Source: Escherichia coli (GTDB taxonomy: Bacteria; Pseudomonadota; Gammaproteobacteria; Enterobacterales; Enterobacteriaceae). Taken from it: 64,000 bases of DNA. Under the pieces are notes generated by a model, which ran no database searches, was not told the origin of the DNA, and saw only the letters and a list, made by a program, of their open reading frames with translations. Below are positions 12,143 to 41,852 of the stretch, piece by piece. Position numbers and translations under genes: made by a program. Position 1 is the stretch's first letter, and every line of letters begins with the position of its first letter. The DNA lies in NCBI RefSeq assembly GCF_002854065.1, contig NZ_CP024154.1; one strand, given 5' to 3'.

Positions 12143-12577
12143 ATGACAGTCAGCAGCACGATTTCCGTTTTTTGCCGCGACGGGGTGTTCCGTACCGTTT
12201 ACTGCCACCTGCACGGTGAGCCGACCTGGAACGGTCGCATCCTGCATACCCACTATGCCACTGGTCAGCAGGCCGAAGCCCTGGTTGAACACGGTGATAT
12301 CCGTTGCCTCGGTCCCCGTTGCGACAAACCCGCCGGGCATACGCTTCAGAACCCGGTGGACGGTGTGACGGCTTATTACGGACGTGACAGTGGTTTCCGG
12401 ATGGACAGTGAGGCGCGTGAGTACCGTTCTTTCAGGGAGGCCATCGCCACGGAAAGCACTGAAGAGGTGCGCTTCCATTATGTGTTCATCGACGGCTACT
12501 GGAAGGTGATGTACCGCACGCCGGAAGGCTGGAAGATGAAGTCGCTTGCGCTGGCACTGCGCCGCTGTCCGAAATGA
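12143..12577 (+). CDS. hypothetical protein (144 aa) directly downstream of repeat B2
   Basis: SD AAGGAG 7 nt upstream of ATG; Cys/His-containing; rho-independent terminator hairpin downstream (about 12579-12606). Confidence 0.55.
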   Translation: MTVSSTISVFCRDGVFRTVYCHLHGEPTWNGRILHTHYATGQQAEALVEHGDIRCLGPRCDKPAGHTLQNPVDGVTAYYGRDSGFRMDSEAREYRSFREAIATESTEEVRFHYVFIDGYWKVMYRTPEGWKMKSLALALRRCPK

Positions 12578-12669
12578 AAAAAAGGCAGGGCGATAAACCC
12601 TGCCTCTCTCCGCCGCTGCTTCCCGGCCAGGAAGAGCGGCAGTCATCAACAACATAAGGAGAAATATTT

Positions 12670-12936
12670 GTGAGACCATCAATTATCTTTGCAACGGCTG
12701 AATATGTAAAGCGTCTGCGTGAAGAGTGCCTGCGGGAGAATAAACCCCTGCACCGCCATACCCGCTTCAGACGTCAGGAGCTGGCACAGGATGAGATTAA
12801 CCCGGACGTCCTGGCGATGAGCAGTCATATCGCCAGACGCTGCAGTAAGCAGAAGCGGGTGCGTATCCCCGCGATGAAAGCCAGCGAATGGGGCCACCTG
12901 CTCCGCGCGCTTGAAATTGAGCGGGTCTGCCACTGA
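12670..12936 (+). CDS. hypothetical small basic protein (88 aa, GTG start)
   Basis: ORF only; Arg/Lys-rich. Confidence 0.3.
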   Translation: MRPSIIFATAEYVKRLREECLRENKPLHRHTRFRRQELAQDEINPDVLAMSSHIARRCSKQKRVRIPAMKASEWGHLLRALEIERVCH

Positions 12937-23208: not shown

Positions 23209-24313
23209 TGTGATACTCCTCGCTATCTGTTGCTTTCAGGAAGAGGCGAACGGAAGTGGCGTCTTTCAGGATGCCGGACGGCAGGTGCCAGCCGGTATCT
23301 GATAACACCCAGGGGGTTCCGCCAAAACCGAACTGGCGGAAAGCCTGGTTATTGACATCGATGGCAGCACGTGCGGCGGTCAGACACTGTCCATCCTGTG
23401 CGGCCGGTGCATCGCCGGTGGGGGCCATACCACTGTCAGCGGAATACAGCTGATGCCATCCGGTCGCCCGTTTTTGTGAGTCCGGTTCACACAGCAGCGG
23501 AGCAGTCCGCTTTGTACTGGACTCCCCGCCAATCACGGAGACCGGATAAATCACCACGCTGAATTCCCGGGCCAGTTGCTTAAGCGCGGGTTCCAGCAGA
23601 CGGCAGTTGATGCATGCGGGGTCAAGGAAGGCGTACAGCGTGCGTTCATGACCAGTGGACAGGTTAATGGTGAACATCCCCCGGTCTGCGTTGCGTTTAA
23701 GTACTGTGGCCAGATTACGGCGGGCCTCAGCGGCCTGAACGTGTTGTTCTTCCGTCACTGCCGTCGGGGCGGGGGCAGAAGAAGGTTCCTGCTGTGTGGG
23801 AGCCGGGCGGGCCGGGATGCTGTTAACATGATGTTCCGTATGTGGGCGTGGTGTCTCTGTGTCGGTTACTGGTTCAGCTCTCCATTCCTGAGATGTAGGG
23901 TAAGCCAGCGTGGAAGGGGACTCTGCCTTCATCCAGTGGTAACCTGCAACTGTCGCCGGCAGAGCAATTCCGGCGATAAAGCCACACATCAGTGTCCGCC
24001 AGAAGCCATTTTTCCGGGAGGGATGTTTTCCTTTTCCGGCATATTCGGCATCCAGGCAGGCATCAATCGCTGAGAGCATTCTGCCGATGTGATGTCCGGG
24101 ACGTTCTGCATCAACGGTATCAACAAGCACCGTTTCAGTTATTTCGCGAAAAGGGGAACTGAAGGACAGGTGCATCAGCCTGTTATTACGGTTAATCAGT
24201 GCGCCCAGTTCTGTTACCGGCAGGATGGCAATCACCTCCCGATTACCGTCAGGGTACAGGGCGGTCAGGGACAGGTGTTTATTATTCAGTGTTGCAGTGT
24301 AGTGGATGGTCAT
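23189..24313 (-). CDS. trbB: TrbB-like thioredoxin-fold disulfide isomerase
   Basis: CxxC motif (DPACINCRLLEP) in C-terminal half; Pro/Thr-rich linker; trbA-trbB-trbC order. Confidence 0.7.
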   Translation of the reverse strand: MTIHYTATLNNKHLSLTALYPDGNREVIAILPVTELGALINRNNRLMHLSFSSPFREITETVLVDTVDAERPGHHIGRMLSAIDACLDAEYAGKGKHPSRKNGFWRTLMCGFIAGIALPATVAGYHWMKAESPSTLAYPTSQEWRAEPVTDTETPRPHTEHHVNSIPARPAPTQQEPSSAPAPTAVTEEQHVQAAEARRNLATVLKRNADRGMFTINLSTGHERTLYAFLDPACINCRLLEPALKQLAREFSVVIYPVSVIGGESSTKRTAPLLCEPDSQKRATGWHQLYSADSGMAPTGDAPAAQDGQCLTAARAAIDVNNQAFRQFGFGGTPWVLSDTGWHLPSGILKDATSVRLFLKATDSEEYHNEPAPR

Positions 24314-25635
24314 TGTTCTTTTTCCTTGTCGGCGGGATGCTGTTTTTCGGTGGTTTCGGTGGTTTCGGTGGTTTCGGTGGTTTCGGTGGTTTCGGTGGTT
24401 TCGGTGGTTTCGGTGGTTTCACCAGTGTCAGTGTCTTCGTCGTTATCATGGCGGCGGGGTATCACGTCATCCGTGAGTGACCAGCGGGTCCTGATCTGAC
24501 GTTTACGATCGCGATCTGGCTGAGGTTCGTCCCATATCAGGCCCAGCCCCAGCATGTCCCGTCGAAGCCCTTCAATGGCCTCTTCCACACAGGGTTCCGG
24601 GCAGGGGAGGCCGAGACGGCTGGCTTCATTTTCTGCCCGGGCAACGGCCACCACGCCGGCCCCTTCGATGAAGCCTTTTGTGGTGTTTGCCCGGTGAAGG
24701 GCATAGAAGAGCGTCCGGTCAACGCCCTTGAGCCACAGCCAGTTGGGGGGCGTCAGGCGCAAATCATGTGCGTAAAGCCAGACAAGACCGCTGCGAACGT
24801 AACGGTGCTGCCTGAGCCACTGTTGTGCGTCTTCTGTTTTTATGACCCGGATAAAGGCGTTTCTGGCCAGTGAATACACTGGCGTGCTGAAACGCCCCTG
24901 GTCCCGCTTGCTTTTGAGTCTGCAGGAGAGGTTGAGGTTATTCATCAGGGAAACAGCCGATTTCCGGTCCCCAAGGAAGAACTGCAGGCCAAAGACGGCA
25001 AAGAGTGCTTTTTCATGTGGAGCCATGTCTTTCCAGGTGGTCAGAGGCTGGCCCAGTTGCGCCATAAAGCACTGGCGCGTGGCCGCAACATCGAGCTGCA
25101 TGTTGCGGATAAGGTTGTTCTGCTCCACAAAGGCTTCGGGGGTTAGAGCGACACGGCGCTCGGGACGTTTTTGTCCGTGGAAGAGTCTGTTGCTGTCTCC
25201 GTCAGCCAGAACGGGGGCGATCGCCGGTGACAGTGATGAAAACAGATGTGGCAGCGTGTGGATATTCAGTGGTCTGCGGGTGAAGCGGGGCTGGGCCGGA
25301 TGCTGAAACCACATCCACAGAAAGCCGATCGTCATGGGAAGCAGAATCAGCCAGAGGATCCCCACGGTCTGTGACATGACATCCAGCCACTGGCTGAAAG
25401 TGATCGTTGCAGCGTTGTTGGCGGTGTTGGCCAGCAGGTTATAACGGGGGGCGGCAAAATGGTGAAAAGGCCCCCAGTCAGTCATCCCCCACATTGTGTG
25501 CAGGATCAGGCAGGTGGCAAAGACGATGTCGGGTAAAAAGAGCCAGATGAGAAGCGCAAAGAGCAGACATATGGTGCCAACGATATACCATATGTTCATC
25601 GGGTCTTCTGTTGTGGGGGAGTGTTGGTAAGACAC
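24310..25635 (-). CDS. trbA: TrbA-like membrane protein with C-terminal (TET)n repeat
   Basis: 441-aa ORF with N-terminal TM segments; identity assigned by position upstream of trbB; 9-bp in-frame tandem repeat at 24349-24420. Confidence 0.6.
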   Translation of the reverse strand: MSYQHSPTTEDPMNIWYIVGTICLLFALLIWLFLPDIVFATCLILHTMWGMTDWGPFHHFAAPRYNLLANTANNAATITFSQWLDVMSQTVGILWLILLPMTIGFLWMWFQHPAQPRFTRRPLNIHTLPHLFSSLSPAIAPVLADGDSNRLFHGQKRPERRVALTPEAFVEQNNLIRNMQLDVAATRQCFMAQLGQPLTTWKDMAPHEKALFAVFGLQFFLGDRKSAVSLMNNLNLSCRLKSKRDQGRFSTPVYSLARNAFIRVIKTEDAQQWLRQHRYVRSGLVWLYAHDLRLTPPNWLWLKGVDRTLFYALHRANTTKGFIEGAGVVAVARAENEASRLGLPCPEPCVEEAIEGLRRDMLGLGLIWDEPQPDRDRKRQIRTRWSLTDDVIPRRHDNDEDTDTGETTETTETTETTETTETTETTETTEKQHPADKEKEQ

Positions 25636-26915: not shown

Positions 26916-27383
26916 TTATTTCTTATTCTGTTTTCTCCAGGTCCATGGTGGTACCGGATTTTTATCTGCCCATAATCCCCGCTTCAGGGCGCGGGCATCA
27001 CGCTGGAGCGGCGGGAGAGTATAGTCATTATTGTAGTCCGGGTACACCCAGGCAGCGCCGTTACGGACCTGCCAGCGATTTGCTTCTGTGCCGTCAGCGG
27101 TATAGACCCGGCCGAGAATACGGCCATACCTGTCTGTCTGCGCGTATTGCACGGTTACGGGCTTTCCGGCCACCAGGTCCTTCAGCTGAGTGGCTGACCA
27201 GCGTCCAAAGGGCTGTTTCTTTTCCGGTGCATCAATATTAGCCAGACGGACCCTGACAGGCTTTTTGTCCTGTAATATTTCCAGCGTATCACCATCAAGA
27301 ACGCGGATGACGTGCCCCTGAATCTGTGCGGCACAGAGAGAAGCGGAAAAAATAATGGTGAGTGAAAAGATATATTTTATCAT
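26916..27383 (-). CDS. secreted thermonuclease (staphylococcal nuclease-like) family protein
   Basis: Signal peptide; SNase-like motifs (VIRVLDGDTLEI, RLANIDAPE, YGRILGRVY). Confidence 0.8.
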   Translation of the reverse strand: MIKYIFSLTIIFSASLCAAQIQGHVIRVLDGDTLEILQDKKPVRVRLANIDAPEKKQPFGRWSATQLKDLVAGKPVTVQYAQTDRYGRILGRVYTADGTEANRWQVRNGAAWVYPDYNNDYTLPPLQRDARALKRGLWADKNPVPPWTWRKQNKK

Positions 27384-27484
27384 TTCATCGTCTCCTTTTT
27401 ATTTATGAAAACAGGTGCAATTAATATTGCGAAATAATAACGTTCAGGTGTTTTTTTTTGGCAGTGTGATACTTCACGCAGGGC

Positions 27485-28165
27485 ATGAATTCCAGTACGC
27501 TGATATCCGTGATGATACGGCAACAGATATCCGGTGACGGTATGCAGGAACATATTGATTATCAGATTGAGAAATATCAGTTCAGGGCCAGGAATGAGTC
27601 ACCGCGACTGATGCGCCAGTGGGAAGATGTCATGCGTGAATGCCGTGATACCGGAGCAGGAGCCAGGGAGCGGCTGCGGATTGCCTTACTTAATGTTGAT
27701 TATGTGACCAGTTTTGAACTGCCGTTTCGTCTGCTGTTAACCCGGACACCGCAGATGATTGACAGCGTGCGGCGGGAATGGCAGCTCAGCCAGAAAAAAG
27801 TCGTATTCAATGAGCGGCAGCGGGGATGTGTATACAGTCTGCAGAATGACTTATCCGGCGTGCCGGATAGCTTCAGTTACAGTCTTGCGACGCGAATACG
27901 GCGGGTGGACAGCTATGGCATGACGACGCGTTGTTTCACTGATATAGCCGGGCAGGTTAAAGCCCCGACAGCACGGCTGAAACTGGCGCTGGAAAGCGGG
28001 TTAATTGTCACCGCGCTGGATGGTCTGTTCTGGCTTGGTATTCAACGTATTGCCGCAGATGTGCAGCGGCTGCGTCAGTCCGGAATGACAATCATCACCC
28101 GGGATGTTGAGGTCTCAGACTCGCTGACCGGAACCACACGGGTTGTTTCCGGGTACAGCCTTTGA
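27485..28165 (+). CDS. hypothetical protein (up to 226 aa), possible DNA-binding protein
   Basis: ORF; several candidate starts; C-terminal region resembles a winged-helix fold by composition only. Confidence 0.4.
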   Translation: MNSSTLISVMIRQQISGDGMQEHIDYQIEKYQFRARNESPRLMRQWEDVMRECRDTGAGARERLRIALLNVDYVTSFELPFRLLLTRTPQMIDSVRREWQLSQKKVVFNERQRGCVYSLQNDLSGVPDSFSYSLATRIRRVDSYGMTTRCFTDIAGQVKAPTARLKLALESGLIVTALDGLFWLGIQRIAADVQRLRQSGMTIITRDVEVSDSLTGTTRVVSGYSL

Positions 28166-28366
28166 TTTATGCAACAAAGTATCGCAGCGTCGAATATGAG
28201 CTATGGCCAGATTTTTGTTAATCGTGGTTGTTGCAACATGTAAGGCGAATGACCACACTATTCTGGCACGCTCGTAATCATGCTGAAATTCTGCTTCCTG
28301 TCCTGCCGTGATGAGTTCCGACCAGGACATACGGCGAAGTGTATGTCTGTCAGTAATATCCGTCAT
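28115..28366 (-). CDS. hypothetical small protein (83 aa)
   Basis: ORF whose start overlaps the stop of the upstream gene (ATGA); last gene of a three-gene minus-strand cluster. Confidence 0.4.
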   Translation of the reverse strand: MTDITDRHTLRRMSWSELITAGQEAEFQHDYERARIVWSFALHVATTTINKNLAIAHIRRCDTLLHKSKAVPGNNPCGSGQRV

Positions 28367-28578
28367 GAGCTCTCAGCCTCCTCCTTCGTATTTCCGTCAG
28401 AAACACAAACGCCCCGCAGAGAAAATTCGCCAACATTCTCCTTTTTAATGGCGCGCAATGCATCGCGGCAGGCCCGTTCGGTATGAAAGGCCTGGCTGTG
28501 CACCGCCAGTGTGGGCTGACGGGCATCACCGGAAGAGACATTAAAGGGCGATGAAAGCCAGAAAATCAGTAGCCACAT
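28363..28578 (-). CDS. hypothetical small protein with N-terminal hydrophobic segment (71 aa)
   Basis: ORF only. Confidence 0.4.
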   Translation of the reverse strand: MWLLIFWLSSPFNVSSGDARQPTLAVHSQAFHTERACRDALRAIKKENVGEFSLRGVCVSDGNTKEEAESS

Positions 28579-28581
28579 GCG

Positions 28582-28965
28582 TCACACCTCGTCCTTTTTA
28601 TGCGGGTATCTGGACAGAATATTGAGCGCCTGTAATGGCGCTTCATGCATTTCACGGATACAACGGGCATCGGTGATATTTTCCCGGTAATGTGTGGTTT
28701 CCAGCATCATATGATGCATATGGAGCATCCGGGCCAGGGCTGCGCGGAGTTCTTCAATATGTTGTTCATGGGAATGCTGGCGGGGCTGTATCCGGCAGAG
28801 AGGGATAACCTCCACATCATCCGGGTGCGCGCGAAGCCACGCGTCAGTGACTGCAATGTCGTCAGTGTAAAACCATGTGCCGGATGTCCCGTTGGCCAGA
28901 AAACGCATTTTCCAGGCTTCTGGGGTGGCGGTTGTGTTGTTATCTTTCATGGTGCCACCACTCAT
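28582..28965 (-). CDS. hypothetical protein (about 122-127 aa), His-rich
   Basis: ORF only; first gene of the three-gene cluster. Confidence 0.45.
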   Translation of the reverse strand: MSGGTMKDNNTTATPEAWKMRFLANGTSGTWFYTDDIAVTDAWLRAHPDDVEVIPLCRIQPRQHSHEQHIEELRAALARMLHMHHMMLETTHYRENITDARCIREMHEAPLQALNILSRYPHKKDEV

Positions 28966-29240
28966 TCAACAGGCTTAATGCTGTCCAGGCGCAGTCTGCT
29001 CAGACTGCCGTGGCTGCCACAGCGGCGTCCAGTGCTTTTGCTGTAGCACTCCTGCCCCCTGATACACCATGCCGTTGGCGTTTCGTAGAGGCTGACACGT
29101 CGGGTTTTATCTTTAATGATGAGAAGCCCGGTGTGAGTTTTTGTCTTTTTCATCGGTGGGGTACAAACGCAGAGATTTTGTTGTCATCAGTTTTTGCCTG
29201 CAGAGGCCTGAAAAGACAGCGTTTTCAGGCCCTGTTCAGG

Positions 29241-29483
29241 TTAGTGAATATTCTTGCCTGGCCTTTCGGCAATATCAATCCCCTGAAGTTGCATGGATAT
29301 CCCATGCCCATTGAGCATCTGGCTGTCCATGGAATTGATACCGCATGTCATCATCAGGTTGTAACAAAGCGTACTCAGCATGGTGAGCGCCTCTTCTGAG
29401 GATTTACAATGTGTATTCATAAGGGCCAGAAACTGCTCAACAACATCCGGGTTAATGCTGGTACTGTGTATTTCATCCTTCAT
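29241..29483 (-). CDS. hypothetical small protein (80 aa)
   Basis: SD AAGGA 6 nt upstream of ATG 29483. Confidence 0.4.
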   Translation of the reverse strand: MKDEIHSTSINPDVVEQFLALMNTHCKSSEEALTMLSTLCYNLMMTCGINSMDSQMLNGHGISMQLQGIDIAERPGKNIH

Positions 29484-29664: not shown

Positions 29665-29958
29665 TTGAGGCTGTATGCCGAAAGCGTTTTGTGGACGGCA
29701 TGTAGCAGAAAGCCCCAGGCGATTTTTTTATCAATCAACCCAGGGCCCACTGTAATGCCTCAACAACATTATAGTAGCCCGATGACGGCCGAAAGGCAAT
29801 GGAGGGGCTGCGATGCCACAACGAACGTTTTTAATGATGTTAATCGTCGTCTGTGTGACGATACTGTGTTTTGTCTGGATGGTGAGGGATTCGCTTTGCG
29901 GATTTCGTATCGAGCAGGGAAATACGGTGCTTGTGGCAACGTTAGCCTACGAAGTTAA
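29665..29958 (+). CDS. pndC: pndC (mok-like) overlapping leader reading frame of the pnd locus
   Basis: Reading frame that overlaps and ends inside pndA in a different frame, as in hok/mok loci. Confidence 0.5.
   Translation: MRLYAESVLWTACSRKPQAIFLSINPGPTVMPQQHYSSPMTAERQWRGCDATTNVFNDVNRRLCDDTVFCLDGEGFALRISYRAGKYGACGNVSLRS
29690..29780 (-). ncRNA. pndB: expected position of PndB (Sok-like) antisense RNA; not delimited from sequence
   Basis: Placed by analogy to hok/sok architecture only. Confidence 0.25.
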
Positions 29959-29965
29959 ACGTTAA
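29813..29965 (+). CDS. pndA: PndA, Hok-family type I toxin (50 aa)
   Basis: MPQRTFLMMLIVVCVTILCFVWMVRDSLCGFRIEQGNTVLVATLAYEVKR; hairpin terminator at about 29975-30005. Confidence 0.85.
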   Translation: MPQRTFLMMLIVVCVTILCFVWMVRDSLCGFRIEQGNTVLVATLAYEVKR

Positions 29966-30102
29966 CGGGCAACACGGCGGCAGGACATCTGCCGCCGGAT
30001 TGTTGCGAAGGCTGACCTCAATGCGCCTTGTTTGTCTTTTTTACCGGACGACTGCTGGTTGCTGCTGTCCGGCAGCTATTATTTTTTCCGTCCTGTGCGT
30101 CA

Positions 30103-31689
30103 TCAATTATGACAGTCGCTCTCATTTGGTTGTCTCTGGTTAGATGTATTATTAGATATTTTCGGGGTAATTCGATAAAAGTTATCCACTTCAGCACCAG
30201 ACTGAATGATATATGCAATAAGATCTAAACGATGAATCTCGTATCGTGTACGTAACTCCATCATTTCACGCCATGCTAAAATCCTTGATGTTTTCAGTTC
30301 AGCCTCTATAAGTTTCCATGTGTTTGTTGAGATGGCATGTTCTTCCAGCTGACGTAACGAGAACCTATCACTAATGACCAACCATCCCCATCCTCGAGTA
30401 TGTGCCCATTTGCGACCTGCATTACTTTTTATTCTCGTGAGACTCAAGGTCATTCGGTCTGTTGGCTTCACTTCCATAAGTAGGCACCGACCATCAACTG
30501 TCGCAATGAGTAAATCTGGATAGTATTTTTTTGATTTGTTTTTAAAACAATATGGAATAGAAAATGGTTGTTCTTGATAGAAAAGAACCTGATCGCAACA
30601 TTCTAATAGATTCATTATTTTAAACTCAAGCCCTGATTCGTACTGGACTGTACGACCTAATTTTTGAGAGTAAAAGAATCCAGATATGTCAGTATCATTA
30701 ACCGCTCTCTGTGAACATAGCTGTTCTACGGGGGGAGGAGGTGCGATATATTTTGGCCAATGTGTATTGTCTAGCCATTTACTGAATATGAACTCAACTC
30801 TTTCTTTCTTGATTCGGGCTCTTTCCTGAGCGTGAGCGTGTGCTAATTCTGCTCTTCGTTCACGTAACTTCTGCTTTTGTAATTGTGATATTAATGAGAG
30901 CGAATTTTTTATTTCATCTCGTCTTGCTTTAGGAATGCCTGCGGCAAAAATGATGAATTTGGCGGCTAACTCAGAGGATGTAACGAAATCCCGATGAACA
31001 ATACGATAAATCCATACTGCTATATCATATGGTGAATTACCTATTGAGTTAATAAGGGCTTTAAGGCAAGCTCCAGGTGTCCCTTCATAGCGAGATTTAG
31101 CAGCTAGTAAGCCAAGGGCTCGTTCCTGAAGTTGTCTTACCCTTTCACGGGAAATTCCTAATTTGACGGCAATATCTGCCAGAGAATGAGGTGAATCATC
31201 TGTGCCGAGTCGCATTAGAAGAATATATTGATGTCGTTTATTAGATAAACTTTCGATAGCAGAATGAATTAGCATAATGACATCATGTTCATCGGCTATA
31301 TAATCTTTAAAATCTGTATTGGGTTGGCAGAGGGGGAGTGGGGTATTTTGTTTAAAACTATTCTTTTGTATTTCAACTTTATCATGAGCAATTGTTTTTG
31401 CAGTGCTCAATGATATTAAATTATTGATGATACTATTGTGTTCTTGGCGAGGAATCTTGTTGAAGTAATTGCTGAGGTCATTCACCGTGTTTATATCGTT
31501 GAACTCAAGAAACTCAGAAGGAAGCAGGCGTTTGATTGCTCCACGTATTCCCCCGGACGATCGTTGATGTGTTTGAGTAAGTTTTTTTAGCGAGACGCCC
31601 TCCGCTATGGATACGAGAAGACGCTGTAACTCTTCAGTATTCCATGGAGTACCATGTCGTGCTGGAAAATTGCTGCGGGATTCAGACAT
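30103..31689 (-). CDS. 528-aa protein with N-terminal HTH domains and C-terminal PD-(D/E)XK-like nuclease motif, in AT-rich DNA
   Basis: Sigma-70 region-4-like HTH (SLADIAVKLGISRERVRQLQERALGLL); Myb/GcrA-like N-terminus (PWNTEELQRL); C-terminal YYPD...LLMEVKP. Confidence 0.55.
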   Translation of the reverse strand: MSESRSNFPARHGTPWNTEELQRLLVSIAEGVSLKKLTQTHQRSSGGIRGAIKRLLPSEFLEFNDINTVNDLSNYFNKIPRQEHNSIINNLISLSTAKTIAHDKVEIQKNSFKQNTPLPLCQPNTDFKDYIADEHDVIMLIHSAIESLSNKRHQYILLMRLGTDDSPHSLADIAVKLGISRERVRQLQERALGLLAAKSRYEGTPGACLKALINSIGNSPYDIAVWIYRIVHRDFVTSSELAAKFIIFAAGIPKARRDEIKNSLSLISQLQKQKLRERRAELAHAHAQERARIKKERVEFIFSKWLDNTHWPKYIAPPPPVEQLCSQRAVNDTDISGFFYSQKLGRTVQYESGLEFKIMNLLECCDQVLFYQEQPFSIPYCFKNKSKKYYPDLLIATVDGRCLLMEVKPTDRMTLSLTRIKSNAGRKWAHTRGWGWLVISDRFSLRQLEEHAISTNTWKLIEAELKTSRILAWREMMELRTRYEIHRLDLIAYIIQSGAEVDNFYRITPKISNNTSNQRQPNESDCHN

Positions 31690-31962
31690 GATTTTATCTT
31701 TATGTTTTCTAGGTACTGCCTTGAGTGTGTGGATATGATAATTATTTATAATGATATTGTTATCTTTTATAGATAACTGATATGCAGAATTGTATTGATT
31801 TTGTCTACAGTGGGCAAGACAGTGCTAAGAATTTGTGGGGAAAACATAGAGACTCCATGCGGCGTCCTGAGATAGACGGCAGACAGGCATTCTGCCTGAA
31901 AAGAAAAAGCCGGTTCAGAGAAAACCGGCTGACGGATTATCGTCTAACAGTTGATAGCTACC

Positions 31963-32610
31963 TCAAAATACTTCTGCAACAGGAACACCGGCAACTTTTT
32001 CCCACTCTTTAACCCGATACCGGATCATCTGTGGGAAACGTTCCTTGTACTCATATCCACGTGCAGCCATGGTGTGCATGGTGTTGGCCAGCGTCCTTGA
32101 TGAGATGCCGGAGATTTCCAGTGGGATCATCGGCAGACTCACATATGTAGTGTGGATTTCCAGCTTGCCGTCTTCAGCAACCGTGCGGGTAAAGTTGTGA
32201 ATATCCAGACCAATCACATCCATCACATTGTTCGGATAAATGCGCACATACAGCATGGTGCCGTTTTTAATGTCGATCCCGAAATAACAACTCTTCGAGA
32301 ATGACAGTTGCTCATAATCGCTGGTTGGAGCAAAGTGACAGCTTTCTTTTATCTGCTGAACAACCTGCTGGACTTTCTTTTTTTTCGCTCTGGTTCTCAG
32401 ATATAGCCAGAGTAATGGGAGAATTATTAATGCCCAGCATCCATATGCAAAAATAAAATCCATTGTTTGAGATAAGGCTGAATCATGAACAATTAGTGTT
32501 CCGAAAAAAGCATAAAATAATAAGCATGGTATGCCAAATATGAAATACGCATTGCGAACAAGGTAATAATATGGCCACCAGGAAGGATATCTGCTTTTTG
32601 TTGTACTCAT
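31963..32610 (-). CDS. putative entry-exclusion inner-membrane protein (ExcA-like by position)
   Basis: 215-aa ORF with N-terminal TM segments directly downstream of the traY-like gene; AT-rich. Confidence 0.5.
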   Translation of the reverse strand: MSTTKSRYPSWWPYYYLVRNAYFIFGIPCLLFYAFFGTLIVHDSALSQTMDFIFAYGCWALIILPLLWLYLRTRAKKKKVQQVVQQIKESCHFAPTSDYEQLSFSKSCYFGIDIKNGTMLYVRIYPNNVMDVIGLDIHNFTRTVAEDGKLEIHTTYVSLPMIPLEISGISSRTLANTMHTMAARGYEYKERFPQMIRYRVKEWEKVAGVPVAEVF

Positions 32611-32697: not shown

Positions 32698-34857
32698 TTA
32701 TTGTTTTATTCCGTCTTTATCATCTCCATTAACATTTTTCAGTTTTTCTTCACGAACGCCAGGTGTTCTGCGCATATTGGTATTACCTCCGGCAATAATA
32801 TCTTTGACTGAAGAAACCATATTCCCCAGCATATTAACGCCGTCACGTCCGCCCAGAAAATTAATTACATGGTCAGGCAGATAAGCCTGAAGCGCAAAAA
32901 CGGCTGCAACCAGTGTGGTACAGACTCGGGCATAAATCAGCAAAAATCCAGCGATGCTGAATAACCCCGTAAGGGAGTCCGCCTGCACATTAACCAGAGC
33001 CGCGCCAAACAACGCATTCAGAATGGTGCCGCCGGCCACGATGGCGACCGATGCAAAAAAGAATCCGAACACCATCAGCAGCGGTCTGATCATGCTGTCT
33101 ATCAGGTAGATGTAACCGTAAGCAGCCCGGCTTCCCCTGTCCTGGCTTGTTCCCAGATGGGTGGCGGCCCACAGGGGGCCAGCAGCACATCCAATCAGTA
33201 CGCTGACTATCCAGTTGCCGATGCCGGTCATCCAGAAGATAAACGGGATAAACGGCAGGTAAATGGATAACGAAAAGCCGGCACAGAACAGCAAAAACAG
33301 CAGGAAGTAGAGTGGTGGTGCGGATGCTTCCAGAAAAGCCTTTGCGGCGTCAGATAATCCGCTGACGGCATTGACCAGTCGACCAAAAACGGAGTTGCTG
33401 CCGGCTGTGGAAAGTACCCTGACGGTGGTATAACCCGCCCATATGCTTTCAGTAATACCCATAGTGTAATCACCGATATTTTTCATTTTTATCAGTGGAT
33501 TTAGTTGGTCCGAGGATGTTCCTGTTCCAGATAAGGATGTCGCAATTTTGTCTGCAAAATTTTCACCCGACCATACTTTCATTATTATGCTTTTAGGTTC
33601 AGCGGCTTCCGCTGTTCTGTATTCAGTTGATGAAGTGTTTGTTCCCAGTGCAGGAGTATATGGTGAATTCTGCAGCTGTGCCTGGTAAGCCCCCTTGACT
33701 TCCTTCAGGAATTCCGTATCCCCGGCTTCGCCCAGTGACGAGACGCCACTCACGGTAGGGGCGCGGTTGGCCAGGTCTTCCAGTCGCTGGTTGGCGGTGG
33801 CAAAGGTCTGGTACCAGGCACCCAGGGCAACCCAGCCGTAGGTGGTCAGGTAGGATTTCAGCTGCTCCCTGCGCTCAGTTTCTGCGTTATCTGCCGGCAA
33901 CGCCTTCTGCACCGTTTCTTCATACCGGTTGGCTGCCTTCTGAATACGGCTTTCAATATCCGGCAGGTTGCCGTTACCCGTGTCGCGCCGGGTCCGGTAT
34001 GCCGACACAAATTCCTGCGCCGCGCTGTCCAGGTCACGGAGCATGGTATCCATGGCGGAGCGTTGTGCCGTCAGAACCCCCTGATATTCCGTTTCAATGA
34101 AGGGATTGAAAAAATGGGCCAGCGCGGACTGCTTGTTACTGCCGTTTCCTTTCACGGAGAGACTCACACTCCCGCAGGTGGCGCTGCCATTTGAGACGGT
34201 GACGGTATATCTGCCATTCTCTGTCCGTGAGGATTCGCTCATGGGCGGCGTTGATGAACGTGCGGTACGGTTAAAGTCATCGAGGCCCGTATTCATGGCG
34301 TGTTTGCACAGTTCCATCTCCAGAATTCCCCGTGCTGCCGTGCGGGTGGAGACATGTACTGGCTGTACGGTCATTGAATAGTCTTCAGCAATGTTTTCTG
34401 CCGCTGTCTGAACCATGATATTGGCGGAACCGATGCCCATGATGGATGCGCCCCACAGCATGACCAGTTGCGCCAGACTCCAGCCGGAAGCGGTGGGCAC
34501 AATCATCAAAAATCCACTCACGACACTGAGTATGCCGACGACGTCCCGTCCGTTGTTAAAGACACTGCCCTGGTGTCCCGTGCGGACAGCATGACGGATA
34601 CCAATAAACAGAAACCAGACTATCCCCATCGTGGCGATAATTGCGTTAAACACCATGAACAGGTTGCCAATGATGGTGTTGCTGCTGGCTGTCAGGGGAT
34701 TTGTGACCACATCACCAAAAATGGTGACCAGTGCCTGGCGCGACAGGTCATCCGGATTGGTGGCGGCACTCACAATGTCCTGATAGGTGACGAAAGCCTG
34801 TGCAGGTACGGCAGCCAGCGCCAGACCTGCACTCAGTGCTCTGGGTATGATTTTCAC
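32698..34857 (-). CDS. traY: TraY-like polytopic inner-membrane conjugation protein (DotA-like)
   Basis: 719 aa with signal peptide and multiple TM segments; gene order. Confidence 0.65.
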   Translation of the reverse strand: MKIIPRALSAGLALAAVPAQAFVTYQDIVSAATNPDDLSRQALVTIFGDVVTNPLTASSNTIIGNLFMVFNAIIATMGIVWFLFIGIRHAVRTGHQGSVFNNGRDVVGILSVVSGFLMIVPTASGWSLAQLVMLWGASIMGIGSANIMVQTAAENIAEDYSMTVQPVHVSTRTAARGILEMELCKHAMNTGLDDFNRTARSSTPPMSESSRTENGRYTVTVSNGSATCGSVSLSVKGNGSNKQSALAHFFNPFIETEYQGVLTAQRSAMDTMLRDLDSAAQEFVSAYRTRRDTGNGNLPDIESRIQKAANRYEETVQKALPADNAETERREQLKSYLTTYGWVALGAWYQTFATANQRLEDLANRAPTVSGVSSLGEAGDTEFLKEVKGAYQAQLQNSPYTPALGTNTSSTEYRTAEAAEPKSIIMKVWSGENFADKIATSLSGTGTSSDQLNPLIKMKNIGDYTMGITESIWAGYTTVRVLSTAGSNSVFGRLVNAVSGLSDAAKAFLEASAPPLYFLLFLLFCAGFSLSIYLPFIPFIFWMTGIGNWIVSVLIGCAAGPLWAATHLGTSQDRGSRAAYGYIYLIDSMIRPLLMVFGFFFASVAIVAGGTILNALFGAALVNVQADSLTGLFSIAGFLLIYARVCTTLVAAVFALQAYLPDHVINFLGGRDGVNMLGNMVSSVKDIIAGGNTNMRRTPGVREEKLKNVNGDDKDGIKQ

Positions 34858-40549: not shown

Positions 40550-41095
40550 GTGAAGGCTGAAAATAAAATATTAAATCTTTTTCATGCGACAACAATGAGC
40601 AGAGGCCTGCAAATAATAAAAGATGGGAAAATAAGAACTGATGCTCCTTCTGTTATATGCTGGTCGTTAGAGACGACACCAGGATGGATTTATTTATCGG
40701 ATCAACTTGATAATGCGGTGCATTGGGGGAATAAAATAGCATGCTTTTCAAAAGATGAATTATTTTTCTATATTTTCAGAGTTCAGGTTCAGGAAGAAAA
40801 TTGTTATCCTGATACAGATGATTTGCAATATGTGTCGTGGTTATCTCCTGAGGAGGCAGAAAACACAGACCTGTATACATGTCTTTCTCTTTGCCATTCC
40901 TGCCGAACTGACAAAGAACTGTATACAGGTTGTGAAATATCAGATTATGCAGTCCTTCCTGCAACAACACTGTATACTGACAATTCAGGACATCCTCAAT
41001 ATGATATTGTTAATACGCTTAAAAAACATATAGGCAAAGATGAGTATAATCAGTATGAATCACTTCGTCAGCGTATTGAATGGGTTTGTTTATAA
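40550..41095 (+). CDS. AT-rich orphan ORF (181 aa, GTG start) on the strand opposite to the tra operon
   Basis: SD GAGGAA 6 nt upstream of GTG 40550; markedly lower GC than flanking tra genes; no recognised motif. Confidence 0.45.
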   Translation: MKAENKILNLFHATTMSRGLQIIKDGKIRTDAPSVICWSLETTPGWIYLSDQLDNAVHWGNKIACFSKDELFFYIFRVQVQEENCYPDTDDLQYVSWLSPEEAENTDLYTCLSLCHSCRTDKELYTGCEISDYAVLPATTLYTDNSGHPQYDIVNTLKKHIGKDEYNQYESLRQRIEWVCL

Positions 41096-41451
41096 GTGAT
41101 CTTATTAAGGTGTACAACAATAGATTTTCTTCTTTTGTTTTGTATAAATACCGGAGGAATATAAAAGAAACGGAGACTGCAGAGACAGAGATGAAGTTGT
41201 TTTCCCCGTTTCCTTAATGAAAATTCAGTCAGGGGGGTGGCCGGATAATTATGCCGCGCACTTAATTCCCTGTTGAACTGAAGTATTCCGGCAATATTCA
41301 GCAGTACGCCGGCCAGCCTGCCGTCATCATCCCGCAGGAAACGACGGAGTAGCCGGTGCTCTTCTTTGGCGGTACTGTCAGCTTTTCCGGCCAGGTGTGC
41401 GTGGATGAGTGTTATAAGCGTCTCCGGGGATATGCGGTGAATTTTCATCAT
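41068..41451 (-). CDS. hypothetical tra-region protein (127 aa)
   Basis: ORF only; 3' end runs into AT-rich DNA. Confidence 0.4.
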   Translation of the reverse strand: MMKIHRISPETLITLIHAHLAGKADSTAKEEHRLLRRFLRDDDGRLAGVLLNIAGILQFNRELSARHNYPATPLTEFSLRKRGKQLHLCLCSLRFFYIPPVFIQNKRRKSIVVHLNKITYKQTHSIR

Positions 41452-41852
41452 TCTTCTCCTGATTTTGTCGGGGGTACACCCGGATAAATAAACTGCTGGC
41501 GGCGAATGAAAAAATCACAGAAGGGCATATCCGGTAATTCCGGGAGACCGGACACGGCAATATCCATCCATGAGAGATAGTTATCGACGCTCACTGTGAC
41601 GGTGATGCTGTTATGGGTACGGGATCTTTCATGAATTTCTGCAGCCAGAAAGAGCAGCCAGCCGCCGTTAAATGCCGGGTGGCGGAGAATGAACCGGGCA
41701 ATCTCTTTTTCATCTCCGTCAGGCGGAATATCGTCAGTCAGCGTCCGGATAATAAAGCGCCGGAATGCATCTGCGGAAAACTGATATCCGGCAGTGAGGG
41801 TATCCATTTTTTGTTCCTCTGTCAGTTGGGGCCGGCAGAACGTCACCGGCAC
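41448..41852 (-). CDS. hypothetical tra-region protein (134 aa or shorter)
   Basis: ORF coupled to the downstream gene. Confidence 0.4.
   Translation of the reverse strand: MPVTFCRPQLTEEQKMDTLTAGYQFSADAFRRFIIRTLTDDIPPDGDEKEIARFILRHPAFNGGWLLFLAAEIHERSRTHNSITVTVSVDNYLSWMDIAVSGLPELPDMPFCDFFIRRQQFIYPGVPPTKSGEE

Follow-up and report, generated by a model that had tools for sequence, protein, structure and literature searches.

The stretch of DNA analysed here, 64,000 nucleotides of Escherichia coli contig NZ_CP024154.1 (assembly GCF_002854065.1) and referred to below as the window, has the backbone of an IncK/B/O/Z (I-complex) plasmid. It carries an intact open reading frame (ORF) on the minus strand, with an ATG start and coding for 528 amino acids, which we refer to as the sigma4-TnsA gene (Table 1). 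Its neighbours are a Hok/Gef-type pnd toxin gene on one side (29813-29965, plus strand) and on the other side excA (31963-32610, minus strand), beyond which lies traY. The same ORF was called by PGAP in the IncK2/Z plasmid CP088840.1, in which the region searched (3 kb) was 100% identical. The best-supported reading of the product is that of a stand-alone modular DNA endonuclease, in which a cutting domain of the TnsA/restriction-enzyme lineage would be joined to helix-turn-helix (HTH) modules for targeting or sensing.

Architecture and conservation of the protein

Pfam analysis of the full protein returned two significant matches and nothing else: Sigma70_r4 at residues 150-193 (E 2.2e-8) and Tn7_TnsA-like_N at residues 366-440 (E 1.8e-11). 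Neither Sigma70_r2 nor TnsA_C (PF08721) was matched anywhere in the 528 residues. An AlphaFold2 model built on 25 homologues reached a mean predicted local distance difference test score (pLDDT) of 87.9, and its predicted template modelling score (pTM) of 0.57 leaves the relative placement of the domains uncertain.

Specifically, the model showed a three-helix HTH at the N-terminus, separated by linker helices and a disordered stretch (residues 102-122) from the HTH that resembles region 4 of sigma70; this is followed by a helical spacer, an alpha/beta nuclease domain and a C-terminal helical domain. A preliminary description, made from the sequence alone, had likened the N-terminal segment to GcrA and Myb proteins. 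Structural comparison agreed and is the source of support for this likeness, no significant match to a Myb or GcrA domain having been obtained at the sequence level. The long helix of the spacer (residues 254-307) is possibly an oligomerisation element.

The same description had proposed a TnsA-like restriction-endonuclease fold for the C-terminal part of the protein, and this was borne out by the Pfam match, the AlphaFold2 model and the conservation of an intact catalytic motif. Both the restriction-endonuclease-like fold and the E/D...D...(E/Q)xK motif, which together define membership of the PD-(D/E)XK superfamily, were found in the protein, and genuine TnsA proteins align with it over the ES.LE, Y.PD and E.KP motifs.

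Its assignment of a sigma70 region-4 HTH was likewise upheld, by the Pfam match given above and by a comparison of the family profile with the PDB, in which region 4 of the primary sigma factors SigA/RpoD was matched at E 4e-16. In BLASTP the module was 35% identical to region 4 of E. coli sigma70 (residues 554-605), RERVRQ standing opposite RERIRQ. More specifically, R152, R160, L170 and R181-E182-R183-V184-R185-Q186 align by BLASTP and by the PDB profile to sigma70 R554, R562, L573 and R584-E585-R586-I587-R588-Q589, and these sigma70 residues, I587 apart, are what we take to be its contacts to the -35 hexamer (Campbell et al. 2002).

Table 1. Coordinates of the sigma4-TnsA gene, its predicted domains and the flanking features in the window
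Feature	Position	Strand	Details and basis
sigma4-TnsA gene	30103..31689	-	ORF list; annotation in CP088840.1; Cottell 2014 knockout primers
N-terminal three-helix HTH, GcrA/Myb-like fold	31519..31662	-	residues ~10-57 (AlphaFold2 model: 18-55); variable across family
sigma70 region-4-like HTH	31090..31290	-	residues ~134-200 (AlphaFold2 model: 134-198); Pfam, PDB profile, BLASTP
Recognition helix of region-4 HTH, R181-E182-R183-V184-R185-Q186	31132-31149	-	
Helical spacer	30769..31077	-	residues ~205-307; one helix of ~54 residues (254-307); pLDDT >90; no Pfam match
TnsA-type PD-(D/E)XK nuclease domain, alpha/beta	30370..30702	-	residues ~330-440
Predicted catalytic codon E351	30637-30639	-	
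Predicted catalytic codon E355	30625-30627	-	
Predicted catalytic codon D392	30514-30516	-	
Predicted catalytic codon E406	30472-30474	-	
Predicted catalytic codon K408	30466-30468	-	
C-terminal helical, winged-helix-like domain	30190..30357	-	residues ~445-500
AT-rich upstream region	31690..31907	-	273-bp intergenic stretch 31690-31962 has 38.8% GC
Intrinsic terminator-like hairpin directly after excA	31908..31930	-	9-bp stem, 5 G-C pairs, then TTTTTCTTTTC
Downstream junction	30028..30102	.	R64 homology (pnd region, 90% identity) stops at 30027; blastn against R64
pnd-side terminator-like hairpin	30056-30078	+	terminator scan

The protein belongs to a large family. An exhaustive phmmer search gave 2,062 cluster representatives (clusters of 50% identity) at E<=1e-3, of which 440 also passed E<=1e-10, and the core conserved among them corresponds to query residues ~135-500, many members of 370-400 amino acids having no N-terminal module. 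A Foldseek search of AFDB50 placed members in Actinobacteria, Bacillales, Bacteroides/Phocaeicola, Chloroflexi and alpha-proteobacteria; these are named after domains only ("sigma-32", "sigma-70 region 4 domain", "TnsA N-terminal") and none has been characterised.

Conservation was assessed in two sets. In an alignment of 25 full-length homologues from Enterobacterales, Xanthomonas, Streptomyces, Kitasatospora and Archangium, ten residues of the nuclease domain (E351, S352, E355, E373, Q374, P375, Y389, D392, E406 and K408) and four of the HTH (E182, R183, R185 and Q186) were invariant in all 25. In the second set, made of 132 representatives of the 50%-identity clusters, S352 was again invariant, and E355, D392, E406 and K408 were each at least 90% conserved, with E351 as the exception; the same level of at least 90% was reached in the HTH by R152, R160, L170, E182, R183, R185 and Q186. 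We infer from this that selection acts both on the catalytic site and on the face of the sigma-4 module that would read DNA, which argues for an active nuclease that would bind a ligand common to very different bacteria.

A Pfam scan of the same 132 representatives identified TnsA_N in 127 and Sigma70_r4 in 125. In ten of them a domain resembling the C-terminal domain of the RNA polymerase alpha subunit (alpha-CTD) was also found (best E 2.3e-15), and one (P0148) contained a serine/threonine kinase together with a PEGA domain. Alignment with the E. coli alpha-CTD by phmmer located the domain within the first ~140 residues of P0147, P0152, P0143, P0111 and P0125; P0152 has two copies, and the equivalents of R265, N268 and the NLGKKS loop are mostly kept in these five members. 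Overall, the family consists of a constant core (sigma-4 module, spacer, nuclease and C-terminal domain) to which different N-termini are attached: a GcrA-like HTH, an alpha-CTD, a kinase or none. The swapping of N-terminal modules is a pattern common in conflict systems.

Two profile searches added little. When the nuclease domain was the query, fragments made up most of the matches, and none showed a new architecture. When genome contigs were searched with the full-length alignment, the SRERVRQ segment drew in true sigma factors; one contig (L015) held a genuine relative, and L016-L094 were discounted.

Plasmid setting, distribution and identity with pCT_066

At 39.5% GC (30.8% at third codon positions, GC3) against a window mean of 54.0%, the gene is the GC minimum of the window: 0.5% of all 1587-bp segments are equally low, and every one of these overlaps it. 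The GC profile thus agrees with the low GC content reported earlier. The IncI1 plasmid R64 is without the gene. Homology to R64 breaks after pnd, at 30027, and restarts in traY, at 32771, and the corresponding interval of R64 holds small ORFs. Because homology breaks around it in this way, the gene sits in a variable accessory slot beside pnd, as the preliminary description had it.

We had suspected a variant of trbA, given that trbA-pndC is used in IncI1 typing, and this identity was rejected since trbA is a separate gene ~5 kb away (23873-25189). There is no orthology to trbA or to excA, both of which are present as separate genes in the window. The preliminary description had named as an alternative a conserved regulator of exc/trb devoid of catalytic residues; the catalytic residues are conserved, and R64 lacks the gene. 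The absence of transposition partners was also confirmed, no tnsB, tnsC or tniQ being annotated in positions 1-49 kb of the window, and a search of the gene's flanks for terminal repeats, inverted or direct, gave chance-level matches only. No antitoxin or methyltransferase gene was found adjoining it.

Since excA has its own terminator-like hairpin, and an AT-rich stretch of 273 bp lies upstream of the gene, the gene looks like its own transcription unit, which the hairpin would set apart from the traY-excA transcript. The AT-rich stretch is probably the promoter region of the gene. A promoter scan gave two weak sigma70-like matches upstream of the gene (31817-31789 and 31763-31735; 9/12 each), a number of sites no higher than expected from shuffled sequence, and we claim no mapped promoter.

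Other parts of the window also differ from R64. The segment 26077-26782 is 74% identical to an R64 segment (the dqlB region) that is placed between pnd and excA in R64, and its counterpart in the window lies on the other side of pnd, so that the pnd module and what surrounds it are rearranged relative to IncI1. In R64 trbA adjoins pnd directly, unlike in the window, where the interval between them (26916-29483) holds a thermonuclease gene (nuc), a gene for a 207-aa HTH protein and four small hypothetical genes. Between traU and traT lie three hypothetical ORFs (40550-41095, plus strand; 41068-41451 and 41448-41807, minus strand); traT directly follows traU in R64, and 40550-41807 looks like a second small accessory slot, within the tra operon. 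Lastly, a coding sequence for 144 amino acids in the leading region (12319-12753) is annotated as "post-segregation killing protein PndC"; it lies far from pnd (29.8 kb), and either a further locus of hok/pnd type or an artefact of annotation may account for it.

The gene is already known. The lambda-Red recombination arms published by Cottell et al. in 2014 for the knockout of pCT_066 match the window at 31564-31603 and 30419-30458 with 0 mismatches, and the gene is therefore pCT_066 of the epidemic IncK plasmid pCT. It was described there as a putative sigma-70 factor of an unusual kind, and its deletion left plasmid stability, conjugation to E. coli or Salmonella, growth, biofilm formation and the competitive index unchanged (PMC4083329). 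In 2011 Cottell et al. had reported homologues only in pO26vir, pO113, TP113 and pSERB1 (PMC3377399). UniProt entries and several source annotations name the gene sigma-32, sigma-70 or RpoS, and our search of the literature for a TnsA-like protein with sigma region 4, and for PF08722 in defence, yielded no functional study of the family. The present results do not support the designation "putative sigma factor" used in the literature; they correct the record to a TnsA-type nuclease with HTH modules like those of the transcription machinery and remove a false lead, the control of host genes by a plasmid sigma factor. pCT itself is a globally spread CTX-M-14 plasmid.

In PLSDB the gene was found on 314 plasmids, all at >=95% identity and nearly all from E. 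coli or Shigella. It is carried by 255 of 5,426 complete E. coli genomes (~5%), in which all 260 places are on I-complex plasmids, and the match covers >=80% of the gene in 206 of these 255 carriers. Phages rarely have it: one full-length match was found in 50,697 phage records and two in 2.9 million viral contigs. A minority of I-complex plasmids have disrupted copies (H45, H61-H65, H123-H129 and H152-H156), by insertion of IS1, by deletion linked to ISEcp1-blaCTX-M-14-IS903 or as N- or C-terminal remnants, so the gene is dispensable and is now and then lost. Three of these (H63-H65), in which only the two ends of the gene are left, were considered as an empty site and rejected, the deletions being caused by insertion of ISEcp1-blaCTX-M-14-IS903.

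Genomic neighbourhoods and possible functions

The surroundings of the gene and its homologues were sampled in 12 look-ups, longest contigs first. An all-against-all BLASTP comparison of the ORFs within 6 kb at the 12 loci revealed no shared neighbour, and we therefore regard the gene as a single-gene unit. In the Pfam-annotated loci of this sample no tnsB, tnsC or tniQ lies next to a homologue.

Known defence genes adjoin the homologue in five of the 11 contexts outside the window, a small sample for which there is no background statistic. In Pectobacterium the homologue lies in an integrase-bounded island, with GajA (9e-269) and GajB (2e-230) directly upstream and McrBC downstream, as identified by PADLOC. 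In Xanthomonas it is adjoined by an LmuB-type SMC ATPase (1.6e-31), with a SIR2_2 protein and GmrSD also near; in Salmonella the genes brxA, brxB, brxC and pglX (BREX) lie ~3 kb away; an integrase island (locus L099) holds ThsB (4e-132), GajA, HNH, PIN and a NACHT-like ATPase; and on a Providencia plasmid, with par genes near, Borvo BovA (2e-128) is directly upstream. Mobile elements recur in other contexts, namely an integrase island next to smpB in Mangrovibacter, an F-like conjugative element with traM, anti-restriction genes and a GIY-YIG nuclease gene nearby, and an accessory region adjoining integrases in a Mycobacterium abscessus prophage.

Two features of these loci were recorded in passing. 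Between the homologue and McrBC in the Pectobacterium island (L002, 12150-17274) lies a block of three genes (734, 643 and 327 amino acids) that is also found in L003 and L102, has no Pfam matches and may be an undescribed defence system; its sole PADLOC match is a weak ZorA/MotA-like one for the third protein (8e-6). The unrelated loci L097 (9160-9816) and L099 (11786-12844) contain ORFs that are 29% identical over 115 amino acids (E 9e-11) and adjoin the homologue, in L097 as an uncalled ORF upstream and in L099 as a called gene downstream with HNH_2. This pairing is not kept elsewhere.

The preliminary description had left the choice among defence, exclusion and addiction. Of these, addiction did not hold, as no antitoxin or methyltransferase gene adjoins the gene and the pCT_066 knockout leaves plasmid stability unchanged, and a donor-side role in transfer is made less likely by unchanged conjugation in the knockout and by homologues in chromosomes without conjugation genes. 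The genomic evidence favours defence, because the gene has no conserved partner, adjoins defence systems in the five contexts given above and is rare in phages. We tentatively propose, at somewhat less than even odds, that the gene is a single-gene nuclease for the defence against, or restriction of, foreign DNA. What the analysis established is the domain composition, the fold, how well the residues for catalysis and DNA contact are conserved, the absence of any constant partner gene, and the neighbourhoods; activity of the nuclease, DNA as its substrate, its trigger or target and its role in defence are what we infer.

The protein would act through the DNA-binding modules placed around its cutting domain (the GcrA/Myb-like HTH, the sigma70 region-4 HTH and the C-terminal winged helix), with cleavage by the TnsA-type PD-(D/E)XK site formed by E351/E355, D392 and E406-x-K408. 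The gene appears to move alone among plasmids, integrative islands and defence islands, and its likely job would be to attack or restrict incoming phage or rival-plasmid DNA in plasmid-carrying cells. Such a role against incoming DNA is suggested by its being a single gene, by its association with mobile elements and defence islands, by its rarity in phages and by the swapped N-terminal modules. Its function would be visible only under challenge, and this would explain why stability, conjugation, growth, biofilm formation and competition were unchanged in the pCT knockout.

Several points weigh against this proposal. No experiment ties the gene or any homologue to the restriction of phages or plasmids. 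Within the window its neighbours are pnd and excA, with no defence genes, and there was no obvious defence association in Streptomyces, Archangium, an actinobacterial ESX/FtsK element and one gamma-proteobacterial chromosome; the sample of contexts is in any case small and has no background control. Neither the full protein nor the nuclease domain by itself gave a usable match to PADLOC-DB v2, a library in which the presence of PD-lambda-3 models is unconfirmed. TnsA of Tn7 is a poor nuclease when alone and needs TnsB, so a protein that lacks a partner need not be active. Finally, a reader of the universal -35 hexamer would also find the promoters of the host, and some gating of its activity must therefore be assumed.

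A gene without a knockout phenotype now yields a concrete hypothesis, namely restriction of phages or plasmids that would depend on D392, E406 and K408. Should the gene indeed serve defence, epidemic resistance plasmids would also be vehicles of immunity to phages or plasmids, which bears on plasmid ecology and phage therapy, and the family would be a new single-gene system known from six or more bacterial phyla. That a nuclease is repeatedly fused to copies of sigma region 4 and of alpha-CTD is unusual and may mean promoter-directed cleavage or the sensing of RNA polymerase hijack.

Foremost among the alternatives, although unlikely, is a transcription regulator or sigma competitor, whose HTH modules would bind promoter DNA or RNA polymerase and so alter plasmid or host transcription, the TnsA-like domain serving only as a DNA-binding or oligomerisation scaffold. 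This would suit the strong similarity to region 4 with all -35-contact residues kept, the GcrA-like N-terminus, the alpha-CTD domains of some members and the regulatory role put forward by Cottell et al. (PMC3377399, PMC4083329). However, the E...D...ExK set is kept across phyla, which is hard to explain without catalysis, sigma region 2 is absent, there is no fixed neighbour to regulate, and the pCT_066 knockout showed no growth, transfer or biofilm phenotype.

Next, and quite unlikely, comes the processing of DNA for conjugative elements, as opposed to action on phages, by a nuclease specific for structures such as branched or recombination intermediates or by a weapon in plasmid competition. 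Homologues do occur on I-complex plasmids (in the tra region), the F-like element, the Providencia plasmid and the actinobacterial ESX/FtsK element, and Pfam detected a weak likeness to T7 endonuclease I (two members, E<=0.001) and to Hjc resolvases (two members, E<=0.1). The resolvase similarity of the query itself is nevertheless below significance (E 0.005), many chromosomal homologues have no transfer genes nearby, and the stability of pCT and its transfer to E. coli or Salmonella did not change in the knockout.

We consider improbable, and place after this, a selfish or decaying remnant, either a solo TnsA derivative of a Tn7-like element or a homing-type nuclease, which would hitch-hike without benefit to its carrier. 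In its favour are a genuine homology to TnsA, a patchy distribution that follows mobile elements, the foreign GC content, the dispensability of the gene in pCT and the copies on some plasmids that are truncated or disrupted by insertion sequences. Yet tnsB, tnsC, tniQ and element ends are all missing, the score with the NCBIfam model TnsA_like_Actin is 46.8 bits where the cutoff is 110, each replicon has one copy of the gene and nothing indicates homing into a conserved target gene, and most E. coli carriers retain nearly the whole gene (206 of 255 with >=80% coverage). Moreover, the architecture and the catalytic and DNA-contact residues are kept from Proteobacteria to Actinobacteria, Bacillales and Bacteroides, which points to long-term selection on the whole protein.

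The least probable reading, a minority one drawn from analogy with the integrated decoys of plant NLR proteins, is that the sigma-4 and alpha-CTD modules are decoys guarding against phage takeover of RNA polymerase. Phage take-over proteins bind or modify two surfaces of the polymerase, sigma region 4 and alpha-CTD; in T4, the former is bound by AsiA, and R265 of alpha is ADP-ribosylated by Alt and ModA. DNA cleavage would then be triggered when a phage effector binds or modifies the decoys, or when they dock on the beta flap of a hijacked polymerase. The conserved core, the interchangeable N-terminal add-ons and sigma-4 residues of group-1 pattern across phyla allow this, but binding of promoter-like DNA (UP element and -35) equally predicts the same conservation.

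Comparison with known systems

The protein is not a Tn7-type transposase subunit. Its nuclease domain is homologous to that of TnsA (PF08722; PDB 1t0f, 1f1z and the PseCAST TnsA), the endonuclease subunit of the heteromeric transposases of Tn7 and of Tn7-like CRISPR-associated transposons (CAST), with the acidic and lysine residues intact. Unlike TnsA, it has ~330 extra N-terminal residues with two HTH modules and no detectable TnsA_C, and its gene stands singly in unrelated neighbourhoods, without tnsB, tnsC or tniQ nearby and without transposon ends. It is on the missing partner genes, the missing element ends and the sub-threshold model scores that this conclusion is based.

With the primary (group 1) sigma70 factors (PF04545) the protein shares region 4 and the equivalents of the -35 contacts. 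It lacks regions 1-3, notably region 2, the part that makes contact with core polymerase and with the -10 element, and without this region it cannot act as a sigma factor. The best NCBIfam sigma models scored 25-31 bits against cutoffs of 43-555 bits, none of which was reached. The likeness of the N-terminus to the DNA-binding domain of GcrA and to Myb-SANT HTHs is structural, the sequence similarity not being significant. Unlike GcrA, the protein has no sigma-binding C-terminal domain, and many family members are missing the N-terminal module or have it replaced.

As in stand-alone Type IV/IIS-like enzymes, modules for recognition and for PD-(D/E)XK cleavage would be combined in one polypeptide with no methyltransferase alongside, and McrBC and GmrSD co-occur with the sigma4-TnsA gene in defence islands. 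A difference is that no known reader domain for modified bases was found in the protein. A weak match was obtained to the BPTD_3080 restriction endonuclease family (E 2.5e-4; 19 bits against a cutoff of 800).

Among defence collections, PADLOC-DB v2 gave the full protein a marginal SspB match only (E 4e-4, residues 171-274), and the nuclease domains of three members gave no match in it at E<=10. The protein is not identifiably included in the main text and tables of DefensePredictor. There PD-lambda-3_A bears the name TnsA-N, and its comparison with our protein is one of description and not of sequence. PD-lambda-3, an abortive infection system of E. coli (Vassallo et al.), nevertheless demonstrates that a PD-(D/E)XK nuclease of TnsA-N type can serve anti-phage immunity.

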